Below are positions 25,232 to 31,200 of a stretch of 64,000 nucleotides of DNA, piece after piece. Numbering within the stretch: the stretch's first letter is position 1; each line of letters begins with the position of its first letter. Under the pieces are notes generated by a model. It had not been told where the DNA came from, ran no database searches, and saw only the letters and a list, made by a program, of their open reading frames with translations. Made by a program: the position numbers and the translations under genes. Source of the stretch: a virus; the IMG/VR virus record IMGVR_UViG_3300019487_000020, positions 1-64,000 of that record; one strand, given 5' to 3'.

Positions 25232-28200
25232 TCATACCTTTCCCCTGGTTGGCTTGAACAGCTTCAAGTAGGCCTTGTGCTGGCCCAGTATCTCCTTCGA
25301 CTGGTCCCTGAGGGCCTCGCCAGCAGGCACGTCATTCTTGATGCGCTGCACGCGCTCGTTCATCCTGGTGTTGACGTTGCCCGCCTGTACAGCCCTGCCG
25401 GTGGGCAGGAACCGCTTGCCGTGCAGGTCGAAGTTCCTAGCCTCCACTTCGGCGGCGGACCTGTACTCGTTGGGGTCGTGCTCGTAGTCTTCCTGCGTCT
25501 TTGGGTTCTGGTAGTTCCAGTCGCGGTCCGTGGCCCTAACTTGGCCAAGCGGGCCGTGCTTTACGCCTGGGTTGCCCGTAGATGTTTCGGCCCTAAACTT
25601 GTTGCGGTGGCCGCCCACTCCGGCCCTTCGGTCTATGTAGTCCTCCAGGTGCCTGGCCACGTTCTCGTCGAACACCGACGCCTCATTGTGCTCGGCGTCG
25701 TACTCGGGGTCAATGCTGCGCCCTGCTCTCGTAGTGTAGTCTCCAGACGCATATCTTTGGTAGCGCTCTCCTGCTTTGTCCCCCTCATTCAGGTACTTTT
25801 GGTGCTCGCGCACGGTGCTGCCGTGCGGCGTCTGCATGGCGTGGGCCAGCTCGTGCTCCAGCCCGAACTCGCCACCGTACTGCACTTTGTTGCGGCTTGC
25901 TGCCGGCATATTGTTGTCGTTCTGTTTGAACTTGGACTCATCAACCCTCTCGGGCTTAAGGCCCAGTCGCCTGGCGTAGGCGTCCCTGCGCTTGTTGGCT
26001 ACTTGCAGAGTTATGTTGCGCGTCTGCTCGCGCACGTTCTTGGACCGCTTCTCCAAGGGCTCGCTGGCCGCAAGCTTCTTGGCCTTGTAGGCCTCGATTT
26101 CCTCGGGTGTGTATTGCTTCACCGGGCTCTTCCTGGACTTCCTCTTGGCCTCAGCGACCTGCTGGTTCATGCGCCATTTTCCCTGGGTGCCGGACGAGTT
26201 GGCGCCTGTCTTCACCTTGATCGAGCCTACGGCGGGTTCCTCAGAGGCGTTGGCCTGCTTGCGCTTGGCGTTGTCCGCCTGGCTGTACTGACCAGCGCCC
26301 TTGGGGCCGTAGTTGGACTTTCCCAAATCCCCTAATCGTATGCCCATGGCTAGGTTTTTGCCGAAGTGCCTGTTCTGTTGGCCCCACAAGGCCATGCCGG
26401 CCTGGGTGCGCATGCTAGAGCCAGTGTCCTTGATCTTTTTGCCGCTGACGCGCTCGGCCTCCTGGTACATGGCGGTGGCCAGTCCCTTGCGCCTGTGGTC
26501 TGGGTGCACCTGCACAGCGGGCGTGGCATCCTCCATGCTTTCTGTGTCGTGGTAAGGCCGTATGTGAGTGTCGGAGCGCTGATCAATTCCGCTCTCGTGC
26601 TCAAAAAATGGCGTAAATTCGGCGTGCCCGACCTTGTTTCCCAGTCTGTCCGTGGCCACAATGCGCAGCAAATTTTCATCCTGATGTGGCTCGTAGCGAA
26701 CCGTGTAGCCCTCGGCTCTCCAGTCGCCCCTCTCGCCCTTGCCGAAAGGACGAGTCGGGCTATCCCACATGGCCGCCCCTGCGTCGCTTTGGGCAGAGGG
26801 CCTGTCGACCTTGAGGCCTGTCTTCTGCTCTGCCAGCCTGTACATCGCCGACCCTAGGCCCTTGCGCCTGTGCTCCTGGTCCACATGCACAGCCACCCCC
26901 TCTATCTCGTGCGGATACAGCCTTCCATGCTGCTTGGTTAAGTACGCCTGACCCACTAGGTTGCCCTTGCGGTCCAGGGCTGCTACGCTGTGCAGGTCGT
27001 GGTCGCCATGCATGTGCTGGTTACTGGGTATAAGCGTGTACCTTAGCACATACCCCTCCTTGCTCCAGTCGCCCCTCTCGCCCTTGCCAAAGGGTCTATT
27101 AGGCTGAGACCAAAGTTTTTTACCTGCAAAAGTTCTGTCATCTTTTAACCTGCCTGTGAAAGGATCAGTACTTTTTGAAGGATCAAATTTTTTTCTGGTT
27201 ACTTTTTCTGCATGTTGATACATTGCAGTGGCCAAGCCTTTCCTTTGATGTTCTGGATGAACCTCCACTAAATTTGCGCTCATTTTAGCGGCAGATGGAG
27301 ACCATCTTTGAACATATAGACTTCCCACGTTTTTTCCGTTTTTATCCTTAGCGGTAACTCTTAGATCTCTCACATCTGAGCCGGGATGAACATTGGATGT
27401 GTGACTAAGGGTGTATCCTTCTTTGCGCCAATCGCCCCTCTCGCCCTTGCCGAACCAGTCCTCTGGCTTGTCGCTGCCTGTGGCCTTGGCCCGCGCGCGG
27501 CCGGAGGTGGCGTGCCTCAGCTTGCGGTCCGCAGAGTTCTGGTACATCTGGTTGAGGTGGTCCTGCCCCTCCTCGGCGGATATCTCAGTGCCCGTGTCGG
27601 GGTTGTGCCAGTTGTCCTGCTTGAGCCGCTCCAGCTGGGCTATGGTGTGTCCCTTGCGTGGCGATCGCACCGGGCCCTTTTTCAGGTCCTCCAGCCGTAT
27701 GCCCATGGCAATGGATTTGCCCAATTCGCTGGCAGCAAGTTTTCCGGGTACAGTTTGATTTTGCCCAGGGGAGTTCGGCAACGTGCGTCGGGCCCGTGCC
27801 TCCAGAACTGCCATTTTGCGGTCCCTGCGGCTCGGTCGAAGATCACGTTCGATTAAGGCACGAGTTCTGGGAAATCTGTTTAACGCATGGTAGGGGTCCT
27901 GGCTGTTTTCGTGGTGCTGTACCTTGGAATTGTGACCCGCGGCTACAATTACCTCGAACTCATTACGTCTATGCGAAGGTCCAGGGTGTTTCGCTAGTTT
28001 TCCTGTTCCTACATCTTCCATATTTTCGTAATGCGTGCCTATTTGATTGGGAAAAAAATGTACTTTTGATTCCGGTATCCAGGCAGAAACTACGCCAGGC
28101 ACCGCGTCCCCACTATGCTCGCCATAGTCGTAGGCCGCAAAGTTGTGGGCAAGCCTTAAGCTGGGTGTCCAAGATGATTTTGTGGCATGATTGACATGAT

Positions 28201-31200
28201 CGCCCTTGACTGCGGACATATTTTCCGATCCGCTCATTCCCCTATGTAAAAGGAATTCTCTCTTTCCCGTTTCCGGGTCTAGCCGAGTGTGAGCCCTTGC
28301 TGATAACTTATGTAGTGCCCGAGCGCGCTCGGCCGAGGTCATTTCTGGGATGTTTTCTCTACTGGTCTCACCCACATACGCTTGTCCGCTTGTCCACCCT
28401 TCTACCGCTTCACGAGTCTTAGCGGGCACAGAAGATGGGTTGTACGGATGAAGCCTAGCCATTGAGCCTTTTTTCAGGTCCTCCAGCCGTATGCCCATGG
28501 CGACCGACTTCTCGCTGGCCGCAAGCTTCTTGGCCCTGCTGATCGCCACGTTGGGGTCTGCTGCCCTTGGGTTGCCCATGGTGACGTCGTGTCCTCTTTC
28601 CTTTAGCTTCTGCCACACCCTGTTGGCCGGCCCGCTGACCACGCTGTCGCTGCTCATTCTTCCATGGTGCGCCAGCGCGGCCTCGTACAGCATTGTGCCG
28701 TAGCCCTTGTTCTCCTCGGCTGGCTTCACCGCGGAGGAGATCACCCTCATGCCGTACTTGTCGGGCCGTCTGTAGTCCGTGCCCTCCAACTGCGCCAGCA
28801 CCCCTTGGTGGCTGGAGGGGTCCCGGTCCGCGCTGATTATGTGCCGGTAGCGGTAGCCCACCTGGTGGTTGCCGTAGGGGTCGTTGAACGTGTTGCGGAA
28901 CACATGGTGCCACATCCCGTTGCCAAGCTCCGAGGACGACTCGTGGTGCTCGTTCGGCAGCCTGCCTGCCGGCCTGAACTCGTCCTGCAGTACGTAGTTG
29001 GGCTCGGTGCCCACGAACGGGGCTTTGGCCAGCAGCGACTTCCTGAGGCTCGGCTTGTAGCCCTCGCACATGCCGTCCGTGCGCTCCTCGTCTCCGCACA
29101 GTATGCAGCGCGGGTGCCCGTTCGGGTGAGTCCACTTGGCCGGCTTGAACTTGTGGGGCACTGACCCGGCATCCTCCCTGTTGTCCTTTATGGTGTCCGT
29201 CTCCCGGTCGGCGGCCTCGCTGGACTTGCGCATTGGCTTCTTGTCGGCGGCCTTTAGGTAGCTGCCCGGCCCCACGAAGACCTCTTGCTCCCGGTCGGTG
29301 AGGTGCGCCCGGGTGTTGGCCCCCAGCCTCGGCGCATGCGGGACGTACACCGACACAGCGCTCTCCGGCACCCACACGCTGTGCTTCTTGGTGTGCGCCC
29401 AGCTTGGGTCCAGGAACTCGCCTGCTATCTTGGGATTGGTCGTCATGCTTACCGGCCTGCGGTAGTGCACCTGTTTTGCGTTCTCCCCGGCGTCGTGCTC
29501 GGAGGAGGCCCTGTGCAGCAGGAAGTGGCGCTCGCCGTTTATCGTCTTGGTTTTGACTCCGCTCCTTGCCATGGCCTCCACCATGGCCCTTCGGTCCCTG
29601 GCGTGCTGGGGCTGCATGAACTGGTTGTGCAGCATCTCACGCAGGTGGGGCCTGCCGAATACTCCCCCTTCCTCTTCCTCCAGGGTGGTGGGCCTCTGCC
29701 ATTCGTTCAGCGCGCTGCTCTCGTCCTGGTTGAAGGGGCCCTTCGCCAGCTCGGAGGCGGCCAGTTTAGTATTTAAGCTTTGCTTTATACGCTTTTGTTT
29801 TTCTGCTAGGCGCGCAGCGTTGAACGCGTCCACATGCGAATCATCTTCTGATGAGTATTTGGGGTATTTGCCCGGTCCGGCTATGACTTCTTTCTCTATG
29901 GAATATTGTTGTTCATTTACTGGCGTTCCCCCCACTTTACCGGCGTGGTGCATGGCCAGGCTAATGGCATGTTCCGGCACCCACACGCTTTGGGTATGTG
30001 GCGCGTGACCTTCTCCAGTTTGCTTTACATAGTAGCTGTCTGCATATTTATCAGCAACACCGTGGCTAGTGCTAAAGCTAGTGGGGTCATGCCATACAAC
30101 ATGCGAACCACGGTCGCTCATTGGGTCATTTTCAGATATGCCTCTGTGTAGAAGAAAGTGCCTTACACCTCCGATTGTCTTGGTGGGTGTTTCTTTGGCT
30201 ATGGCGTCGGCCATGATCTTGCGGTCTTTCGAGTGCTTTCCACTAGACATCAAATCGTGAAGCTCGTTGCGTCTGTCGTAATCGCCTGCACTTTGAATTT
30301 CATTCATTAGTCGGATTTCTGTTTCGTCCATCGGAGGGGATTTAACCAACTCAGACGCGGCCATTCGTCTAGACGACTTTTTCTTGCGCCCAGCGAAGTG
30401 ATGCAGCAGAGCCTTTGGGTCCTTGGCCTCCATGTAGAAGGGCTTTTCCTCGGACTCATCAGAGTCCACGTGGCCATAGCCCACATTGCGGTCCTGCTCA
30501 ACCCCAGGCGCGTTGAAGAACTTGTTCCACACGCCCGCGGCCTGCGGACTCACCTCCGTGCCCGAGGCCAGCTGGCCGTGGTGGGCGAGGACGGCAGCGT
30601 ACATGGCCGCACCGTAGCCCTTGCCCCTGTGCTTCGGCTCGATCTCTGCCAGCGAAACCGCCGGAGTGCCTATGCCCCTGTGTGTTTCGTACACGTCCCT
30701 GACCGTCATGGTGCCTACATGGCCCAGCTTGGGGTGGTGAATCTCGTGCAGGGTCTCCGGGTAGTCGCCTTTCTTCGGGACGTATATTTTGTGAACCAGG
30801 CCGTTGGGCAGCACTTTCTTGGACACCAGCCTGTGCTCCTTGGAGTGGCGGTCGATGCCCAGCGTCTCGTTATAGGCGTAGTCGTTGTACTCGAACGGCG
30901 CCTTGGCCAGCTCCGACTTGCCAAAGTTCAGCTTGTGGGTGAAGTGCTCGCCGCTCGGCAGCGTGGTGTACATGTCGGACGGCCTGTGCTCGTGCCAGTC
31001 AGTGCCCTCGCCCATGACCTTGCGGCCGGCGTTGGGGCCGTGGTGGTAGCGAAGCTCGTGCTGCCGGCCGTTGGAGTACAGGCTGCTCTCCTGTCCCAGG
31101 CTCTGGGCTAGTGCGTGCAGCTGCTCGGCCTTCTGGGGGCTGACTCCGGTGACCAGCACCGACCTCTCGGGCGACCCATAGTGGCCGTGCACCTCGTGGG

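Follow-up and report, generated by a model that had tools for sequence, protein, structure and literature searches.

A reiterated linker in a phage effector polyprotein as a candidate cleavage signal for an HK97-type prohead protease

The processing of head proteins is known from T4-like and phiKZ-like phages, where it removes N-terminal propeptides, and polyvalent proteins are likewise a known class of gene products. In T4, the prohead protease trims effectors that reside in the head, among them the ADP-ribosyltransferase (ART) Alt, and these are injected together with the DNA (reviewed in PMC9026906 and PMC9958956). In phiKZ and SPN3US (gp175 and gp245, respectively), many internal head proteins share an (S/A/G)-x-E motif with the capsid protein, and some of the propeptides contain it in several copies (PMC10052503). 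Here we describe a giant effector polyprotein encoded in a window of 64,000 nucleotides (nt), i.e. the whole stretch of DNA analysed, which comprises positions 1 to 64,000 of the IMG/VR record IMGVR_UViG_3300019487_000020 and belongs to a 155-kb metagenomic phage contig with a G+C content of about 60%. New in this locus is a reiterated linker code that the polyprotein shares with the scaffold protein; judged by sequence, it suggests that an HK97-type prohead protease processes an effector polyprotein at many sites.

T4 is comparable in that its effectors are trimmed at a short motif that recurs in its scaffold and capsid proteins. However, T4 relies on a gp21-type protease with an L/I-x-E↓ rule (arrows mark scissile bonds), whereas the enzyme considered here is of the HK97/S78 type with a probable h-x-K↓S/A/G specificity (h, hydrophobic residue), and the T4 effectors are encoded by separate genes, each with an N-terminal targeting peptide, instead of a 12-module polyprotein with internal sites. 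Similarly, every substrate cleavage identified in SPN3US removes an N-terminal propeptide, whereas the present sites lie between mature modules, and both the protease family and the P1 residue of phiKZ and SPN3US are unlike those of the window phage. A further parallel is HK97, where the gp4 protease acts on the delta domain of gp5: it belongs to the same fold family, it cuts after a Lys that precedes Ser (K103↓S104), and several h-x-K-S strings occur in the delta domain and in the tail of the protease (PMC10275583). HK97 differs in having no separate scaffold and no known effector polyprotein, and it is only in the Mx1/SPO1-like lineage that a Glu follows the Ser. The principle of one translation product being cut by a virus-encoded protease at reiterated short motifs that separate its functional units recalls picornavirus 3C, but the proteins and viruses are unrelated, and here a DNA-phage prohead and injected effectors would be concerned rather than replication proteins.

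Polyvalent proteins were defined by Iyer, Burroughs, Anand, de Souza and Aravind (2017), who found 2 to 15 distinct effector-type domains per phage or plasmid polypeptide (PMC5512222). The 2036-amino-acid (aa) protein is, by its domain content, a polyvalent protein in that sense: many conflict domains (ART, GNAT, NUDIX, zincin, mCpol) occur per polypeptide, the gene is located near head genes including a MuF-like one, and there are relatives with ART-PolyVal, DUF5872, DUF6321 and DUF5661. More specifically, the homologue P0003 carries ART-PolyVal (PF18760) and DUF5872, and other homologues carry DUF6321, DUF5661 or mCpol; the window polyprotein itself has no Pfam match to the polyvalent-specific domains ART-PolyVal, MPTase-PolyVal, LPD and MuF. 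There are two differences. Embedded metallopeptidases feature in the published concept, whereas here the grammar shared with the scaffold points to an HK97-type prohead protease; and the protease is N-terminal in the fusions of this clade, whereas the assemblin-like peptidases of that paper are C-terminal (PMC5512222). The word 'linker' is absent from its text (PMC5512222).

Linkers between the modules and the occurrence of their motif in head proteins

The polyprotein gene lies between the capsid and tail genes, i.e. in the head region, and its product is identical to the database protein P0001; the mechanical open reading frame (ORF) extends further up to a GTG at 31477 (25232-31477). Homology blocks delimit about 12-13 modules, in the order S-AdoMet-lyase-like, GNAT-like, two ART-like, a Cys-rich mini-module, GNAT-like, ART-like, a small domain, three tandem GNATs, a small basic domain and an HExxH zincin-like domain (Table 1). 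A preliminary description of the window had pointed to near-identical linkers at the module boundaries, and the translated ORF bears out what was reported of them. Five (K/R)(L/M)AASE linkers are present, with their Glu codons at 30350-30352, 29750-29752, 28511-28513, 27725-27727 and 26060-26062; the variants comprise three instances of AMGIRL, two of LAKAPF and a single LAKGPF; the two copies of the 32-nt repeat (27678-27709 = 28470-28501) match perfectly, and the identity extends no further; and SELAKA recurs in the protease-like gene at 43802-43819 (+ strand ORF 42047-44890). In addition, positions 26060-26087 and 28511-28538 form a second repeat with 96% identity. Chance does not explain the linkers, since [LM]AASE is found five times in the polyprotein against 0.008 expected (20,000 shuffles) and [AS]SE ten times against 1.7. 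AMGIRL was set aside as a general signal, being rare outside the window. A SUMO-like psi-K-x-E consensus was rejected because its register is wrong; to our knowledge, no SUMO-like system exists in bacteria.

Table 1. Features of the window considered in the text. Arrows mark predicted scissile bonds; numbered Lys residues refer to the polyprotein, except for the capsid motif.
Feature	Position	Strand	Remarks
Polyvalent effector polyprotein gene	25232-31342	-	2036 aa; ATG at 31340-31342
Linker 1, FGK↓SELAK↓APF	30893-30925	-	canonical double site, Lys142 and Lys147; module 1 alignments end at aa 136-151
Linker 2, RRMAASELVK↓SPP	30332-30370	-	Lys334
Linker 3, TKLAASELAK↓GPF	29732-29770	-	Lys534
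Extra predicted site, KKPMRK↓SSE	29216-29236	-	Lys706; between second ART-like core and Cys-rich mini-module
Linker 4, SLRK↓SLLAK↓APF	29015-29050	-	Lys768 and Lys773; without Glu and AASE, L-x-K↓A kept
Linker 5, KKLAASEKSVAMGIRLEDLKK↓G	28466-28531	-	Lys958; holds 32-nt repeat copy 28470-28501
Linker 6, GKLAASELGK↓SIAMGIRLEDLKK↓G	27674-27745	-	Lys1209 and Lys1222; holds 32-nt repeat copy 27678-27709
Compressed junction, FGK↓GE	27440-27454	-	Lys1299; precedes first tandem GNAT
Junction, FGK↓GE	27077-27091	-	Lys1420; tandem GNATs 1/2
Junction, FGK↓GE	26732-26746	-	Lys1535; tandem GNATs 2/3
Linker, FGKNLAMGIRLGDLGK↓S	26315-26359	-	Lys1675; past third GNAT
Linker, KKLAASEPLEKR↓S	26042-26080	-	directly precedes the conserved SKNVREQ N-terminus of the HExxH module
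Window linker forms, FGKSELAKAPF, KLAASELAKGPF, KLAASEKSVAMGIRLEDLKKG			
Prohead protease fusion gene	42116-44890	+	likely start TTG 42116 behind a GGGAGGA ribosome-binding site; mechanical ORF from 42047
Scaffold-like protein	40596-41375	-	259 aa; seven [LMIFV]-x-K↓[SA]-E sites, Lys codons 41265, 41241, 41085, 41010, 40935, 40779, 40740
Capsid N-terminal motif, LMK↓ALEAG	40538-40561	-	Lys10↓Ala11; aligns with SPO1 Gp6.1 NK↓ALEAGH and phage 812 VVK24↓S25FQTGY
Small head-region protein	47052-47669	-	between portal and MuF-like gene; two h-x-K↓[SA]-E sites
Stand-alone cargo-like gene	23932-25170	-	directly downstream of polyprotein gene; leader MFKHLYK↓ALMDK↓AAGRPSE

At the DNA level, the LAASE sites differ in their synonymous codons (Ser is encoded by TCT, TCC or AGC), with only two of the five being identical. 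The synonymous variation, which includes the change between TCN and AGC, shows long-term selection on the LAASE peptide itself. Because the modules flanking the two 32-nt copies are non-homologous, the DNA identity belongs to the linker; such near-identical linker DNA suggests gene conversion or cassette exchange at the linkers, a route for module shuffling. The linkers also coincide with the limits of homology. When the ends of BLAST alignments among internal repeats and homologues are compared with the predicted sites, 63% are no more than 12 aa away, against 16% of the sequence covered, the alignments not being independent of one another. The polyprotein contains [LMIFV]-x-K-[SAG] 14 times (6.8 expected), always within a linker or in the space separating recognised modules and never inside a conserved domain core. 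The alignments of the ART-like module after linker 5 begin at aa 952-956, and the tail corresponding to linker 6 is disordered in the AlphaFold model (pLDDT <50, residues 230-251).

In its full form the linker consists of two adjacent sites, h-x-K-S-E-(x)-L-x-K-[G/A/S], which the window shows as FGKSELAKAPF, Mx1 as TKKSELMEKA and homologues as, for example, FNKSEDLQKG, CSKSEELEKG or FGKSELVKA. In the common variant K-[L/M]-A-A-S-E-L-x-K-[G/S/A], Ala takes the place of the first Lys. The compressed FGK↓GE junction has homologue equivalents in PFGK↓SELVK↓A and RNSELKK↓GKGGDW. This grammar is kept in distant relatives, i.e. in the homologues P0002-P0007, in Mx1, in 20 related loci and in 115 diverse representatives (no more than 50% identity) that share the last two polyprotein modules. 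Among these 115, the strict motif [LMIFV]-x-K-[SA]-E was observed 142 times (12 expected), the double site 48 times (1.0 expected) and [LMI]AASE 18 times (0.4 expected), whereas a reversed control motif was not enriched (11 observed, 12.6 expected). In Mx1, the polyproteins at OR576727.2 24404-28843 and 37603-39282 contain K-S-E-L-x-K linkers. The string P-K-K-[L/M]-A-A-S-E shows strong conservation across some 20 related loci and many of the distant representatives.

Module order and content vary widely among the relatives. P0002-P0007 are other giant proteins that mix the same modules, in differing orders, with NUDIX, ART-PolyVal, mCpol, DUF5661 and lytic-transglycosylase-like parts, and in many relatives the modules occur as separate genes or in shorter fusions. 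Free-standing modules bear a short leader that ends in the motif, such as MADEKLEKR↓SKNVREQ, MSEKLEKR↓SKNV or MFKHLYK↓ALMDK↓A. The HExxH module occurs 38 times in the diverse representatives; nearly always, L-[EA]-K-(R) stands directly before its SKNV start, and in most of the 38 occurrences K[SA]E is found further upstream, free-standing ORFs included. The retention of leaders on free-standing modules is hard to explain by a mere spacer, which would be needless there.

The scaffold protein is the usual substrate of a prohead protease, and it is in the scaffold that the motif is most abundant. In the window, [LMIFV]-x-K-[SA]-E was observed seven times in the scaffold (0.2 expected), three times in the protease ORF (0.2 expected) and twice in the small head protein 47052-47669 (0.1 expected). 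Across homologues, the counts are 367 against about 15 expected in 64 scaffolds, 80 against 10.6 in protease fusions and 31 against 3.8 in polyprotein relatives, compared with 0 against 3.0 in capsid proteins. The motif is common to the scaffold, protease-fusion proteins and polyproteins of about 80 related phages. Its residues count in combination: h-x-K-[SA]-E is about 26-fold enriched in scaffolds and h-x-K-[SA]-[not E] 1.75-fold, so that without the Glu the enrichment is nearly gone; omitting the hydrophobic residue abolishes it, and the reversed motif is not enriched. In the dominant scaffold site, Lys stands two positions before Glu in 98% of cases. The scaffold motif of SPO1-like phages reads K-S-L-E instead of K-S-E. 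Tandem sites are found in scaffolds, too (for example MNK↓SEADLLK↓SE), and the polyprotein linker is therefore essentially two scaffold-type sites back to back.

The prohead protease and its probable scissile bond

The protease, scaffold and capsid (39194-40582) genes are mutually adjacent, in an order that is the same in Mx1, SP82G and L082. An HK97-family protease domain of about 165 aa occupies approximately 42116-42600, with a His in WEHE (42230-42241) and a Ser in FSIEGS (42473-42490). Alignments of 12 and 14 homologues show both residues, H44 and S124, to be invariant, which makes them the putative catalytic residues. The AlphaFold model of the domain (pLDDT 89.2) gave 113 matches at E <=0.001 in a Foldseek search against predicted viral structures; many of the best 50 named matches bear the name 'Prohead protease', 'HK97 family phage prohead protease' or 'Capsid maturation protease', and a Staphylococcus Kayvirus protease is among them. 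Furthermore, the SPO1-like homologue SP82G gp82 scores 23.7 bits against the Pfam S78 profile (PF04586, cutoff 21), a profile comparison with the HK97-type protease (E = 0.0025) aligned FSIEGS to a GFSVSK segment, and the annotation of the Mx1 homologue reads putative prohead protease. A profile search of solved-structure sequences with the protease domain returned nothing, and a solved-structure search with the model returned nothing at E <0.45, T4 gp21 included if it is present in the library; the fold was thus identified only via the library of predicted viral structures. According to the model, the protease has the HK97-family fold (Peptidase S78 / COG3740) and is not of the gp21/phiKZ type.

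Behind the protease domain, the tail of the fusion protein contains the sites VFK↓TE (42659-42676), KK↓SELAK↓A (43796-43825) and MDK↓SE (44465-44497) as well as further modules. In relatives, cargo modules are fused right behind the protease domain with the same linkers in between, e.g. QQKLAASELEK↓SKNVRE in L082. By definition, protease-fusion proteins sit in the prohead. The gene of this fusion protein of about 924 aa runs in the reverse direction to the head genes around it, and most of the 76 viral-contig loci likewise have the protease and capsid genes on different strands. Its tail also holds a copy of the capsid N-terminal motif (KK↓AIEAGSANAAPGALSQGAAL, KK↓AIEAGSANAAP, 43370-43441), and the cargo modules in the tails of relatives are GNAT, 2H-phosphoesterase-like, DUF5661 or HExxH modules.

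Where the bond is cut can be judged from the protease family. Like HK97, which is cut at the bond given above, phi12 is processed after basic residues, at R128↓L129 and K87↓Q88 (PMC8569155). For the Staphylococcus phage 812, the deposited capsid structure (PDB 9row) begins at Ser25 of a 463-aa precursor, right after VVK, and the cut is apparently K24↓S25; a literature search found no stated capsid cleavage site for SPO1-like or Kayvirus phages. Given that HK97-type enzymes require a basic residue before the cut, cleavage is likely to fall at [LMF]-x-K↓[S/A/G], with the Glu one residue further on. In the linkers, the scissile bonds are accordingly likely to be L-x-K↓[G/S/A] and F-G-K↓S-E, and not A-S-E↓L. 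The window capsid protein starts with MIEQLQQLMKALEAGS, and Lys10↓Ala11 is its likely maturation site by alignment (Table 1). The capsid motif is a variant, L-M-K↓A-L-E, the strict motif being absent from capsid proteins.

LAASE needs separate consideration. In alignment it corresponds to the commonest scaffold site, L-A-K-S-E, but with Ala replacing Lys, and it may be uncut, slowly cut or recognised by something else. One may speculate that it serves as a pseudo-substrate tether for encapsidation, that the embedded zincin acts on it, or that a cut at A↓S would expose an ssrA-tag-like C-terminal L-A-A.

Proposed mechanism and alternative explanations

On this basis we propose that the polyprotein is a head-packaged effector precursor that is diced at its linkers by the HK97-family prohead protease cutting after Lys, an explanation to which we attach moderate probability; encapsidation, cleavage and the position of the scissile bonds are what we infer from the comparisons above. 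The product of 25232-31342 (-) would be packaged in the head as a polyvalent effector precursor. The N-terminal serine protease domain of the 42116-44890 product would then recognise the linker sites inside the prohead and cut after Lys, releasing about 12-13 pieces of 60-270 aa, namely S-AdoMet-lyase-like, GNAT acetyltransferase, ART-like and zincin-like modules, which would be small enough for ejection along with the DNA. The preliminary description had likewise viewed the linkers as maturation-protease sites that split a head-packaged polyprotein. The idea has gained comparative support from the sharing of the motif with the scaffold and from the leaders, whereas the mapping of the cut to P1-Glu is probably wrong.

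Several observations weigh against this proposal. LAASE is the commonest linker, yet the Lys that scaffold sites almost invariably have is missing from it, and it may therefore not be cut; in scaffolds, h-x-[not K]-[SA]-E is even depleted (38 observed, 92 expected). The Glu, which is important in scaffolds, is missing from the second half-site, L-x-K↓[GSA], and the scaffold motif could serve in binding or coiled-coil packing instead of cleavage. As for the enzyme, the protease domain of the window has no Pfam (E up to 1), PHROG or PDB match, and the apparent K24↓S25 boundary of phage 812 was read off the deposited PDB sequence, not taken from published text. Certain large polyvalent virion proteins, such as the N4 virion RNA polymerase, are reportedly packaged unprocessed (PMC5512222). 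A literature search found no virion proteomics for Mx1 or its relatives, the Mx1 paper being a genome announcement. On the practical side, ordinary tryptic or semi-tryptic proteomics does not reveal cuts after Lys, and the semi-tryptic peptide mapping suggested in the preliminary description could miss them.

Among the alternatives, it is conceivable that the linkers stay uncut and act as flexible spacers that form recombination joints, or as packaging or ejection signals, the protein being packaged and injected whole. The perfect 32-nt repeat between non-homologous modules and the 96% identical pair over 28 nt indicate linker-specific gene conversion or cassette exchange, and relatives differ widely in module order and content. 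Besides, some giant virion proteins have been reported as uncleaved (PMC5512222), and the polyvalent gp47 of phi24B was detected in virions (10.64898/2026.04.10.717836). However, the DNA identity is limited to two linker pairs, the other LAASE sites differing synonymously up to TCN versus AGC Ser, and a recombination joint cannot account for the motif in scaffolds or for the leaders on free-standing ORFs. Linkers that recombine could be cleaved as well, so that the two roles need not compete. We regard uncut linkers as unlikely.

Less probable still, in our view, is a cut after Glu, under which the linkers would be cleaved at A-S-E↓L, the scaffold at K-S-E↓ and the capsid protein at A-L-E↓A-G-S, in keeping with a P1-Glu rule like that of T4 gp21 or phiKZ gp175. 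This was the rule invoked in the preliminary description, which had compared the linkers with the L/I-x-E sites of T4 gp21 and the S/A/G-x-E sites of phiKZ-like phages. The Glu is indeed essential to the scaffold motif, as the enrichment values show, and cleavage could on that account still fall behind it; A-S-E and A-L-E match the published (S/A/G)-x-E rule (PMC10052503), and the HK97-type and gp21-type proteases belong to one wider fold class. Yet the protease matches HK97-family proteases and not gp21, the documented HK97-type cuts follow Lys or Arg (PMC10275583; PMC8569155), and the homologous capsid site of phage 812 appears to be K24↓S25. Moreover, the sites do not all conform to L/I-x-E or S/A/G-x-E: the dominant scaffold site has a Lys, K-S-E placing it at P3 where it does not fit S/A/G-x-E, and some linkers are without Glu, such as linker 4 (SLRKSLLAKAPF) and the junction FGKNLAMG, which keep L-x-K. 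The T4 and phiKZ rules belong to another protease lineage, and the fit of A-S-E to the latter appears coincidental. The capsid string that had been read as ALE↓AGS is present, but given the basic-residue rule it is more likely cut as LMK↓ALEAGS.

Self-processing by the embedded C-terminal HExxH zincin-like module, before packaging or after injection and with LAASE as its site, deserves little credence: such processing of polyvalent proteins by embedded metallopeptidases was predicted by Iyer et al. 2017 (PMC5512222), the HELAH string, the weak WLM/M91 matches and the recurrence of the module in relatives, protease fusions included, speak for it, and LAASE, with no Lys where the scaffold rule demands one, could be the site of another enzyme; but the zincin assignment is far below Pfam cutoffs, Mx1 has K-S-E-L-x-K linkers and the HExxH module was not found in any cultured phage, Mx1 included, and the grammar is most abundant in scaffolds, i.e. 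in prohead-protease substrates, an enrichment that this explanation leaves unaccounted for. In partial loci of about 20 kb each, LAASE and the HExxH module occurred together in seven cases, LAASE without the module in 13 and the module without LAASE in seven.

Returning to cleavage by the prohead protease after Lys, a bolder version would see in the linker grammar a general code for injected effector arsenals in a large, mostly uncultivated phage group, with the protease dicing at the double sites and the conserved K-L-A-A-S-E having a second job, either as an uncleavable pseudo-substrate tether or, through an A↓S cut, in leaving an ssrA-like K-L-A-A that times the lifetime of the effector in the host. 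We put this forward as a long shot.

Modules, neighbouring genes and implications

The source of the window is an uncultivated phage that is, by its capsid protein, kin to Myxococcus phage Mx1: the major capsid protein (39194-40582, -) shares 52% identity with the Mx1 counterpart, and SPO1-like capsid proteins are distant relatives. A search with the capsid protein retrieved 76 loci from uncultivated phages, on contigs of up to about 177 kb.

Concerning the individual modules, module 1 (30917-31342) nearly reaches the cutoff of the S-AdoMet lyase family PF23780 (27.8 bits, cutoff 28) and also resembles DUF3293; it could be an anti-restriction enzyme or a packaging domain. It leads the polyprotein in five of six homologues (P0003-P0007) and in the ORFs of related loci that carry it, is located near the C-terminus in P0002 and is internal in the Mx1 protein. 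A search for its relatives with a single sequence returned one locus. Several GNAT acetyltransferase copies of the polyprotein have Pfam matches. The tandem GNATs (26320-27448, -) are three repeats, each some 115-140 aa long, with the compressed junction PFGK↓GERGDW between them, and their DNA is 63-77% identical, which indicates an older internal triplication.

The ART-like modules have no match in Pfam. In the three window modules and four homologues, R76, S99 and E170-x-E172 are invariant, an order typical of R-S-E ADP-ribosyltransferases. Their model has a pLDDT of 65, and its top solved-structure matches are mostly ART toxins (RhsP2, PltA, pertussis S1) at non-significant E values of 0.15-0.6; taken together, the residue pattern is suggestive of ART identity. 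The last module (25235-26050) contains HELAH and gives weak WLM/M91 zincin matches far below the Pfam cutoffs. It recurs in relatives, also within protease fusions; a translated search of cultured phages, Mx1 included, yielded no match. Its start, SKNVREQTRN, nearly always directly follows L-E-K-(R) (window 26042-26050; representatives P0024-P0133), and the strictly conserved new N-terminus might be relevant to the activation of the module after cleavage.

Among the neighbouring genes, the small head-region protein (Table 1) is a further candidate substrate of the protease, given that its homologues contain the motif ten times against 1.3 expected. The product of the stand-alone cargo-like gene corresponds to a module that is embedded in polyproteins of other phages. 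The window also encodes a portal protein, a terminase with a LAGLIDADG insert and a GroEL-like chaperonin. Two genes past the portal gene, a MuF-like head protein (46283-47047, -) has a weak Pfam match (PF04233, E = 0.006) and a portal-associated PHROG match; MuF domains are frequently associated with packaged polyvalent proteins. The terminase large subunit ORF (50552-53734, -; 1060 aa) contains a LAGLIDADG homing-endonuclease-like insert (PHROG match, aa 326-514), which suggests an intein or an inserted endonuclease, and adjoins the gene for the chaperonin (53742-55514, -; PHROG 5725, E = 2.8e-78). A lower-G+C stretch at 32-36 kb, between the capsid and polyprotein genes, holds a GIY-YIG/HNH-type homing endonuclease gene (33390-34418, -) with a third-position G+C of 0.48 versus about 0.8 elsewhere, probably a recently acquired mobile element.

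If the proposed processing takes place, an HK97-type prohead protease would be a polyprotein processor that frees a dozen anti-host enzymes from one precursor. With the linker code h-x-K↓S-E-L-x-K↓small in hand, giant polyvalent proteins could be divided into functional units during annotation; the code would also aid the prediction of injected phage proteins, and it could offer a way of loading foreign cargo into capsids.

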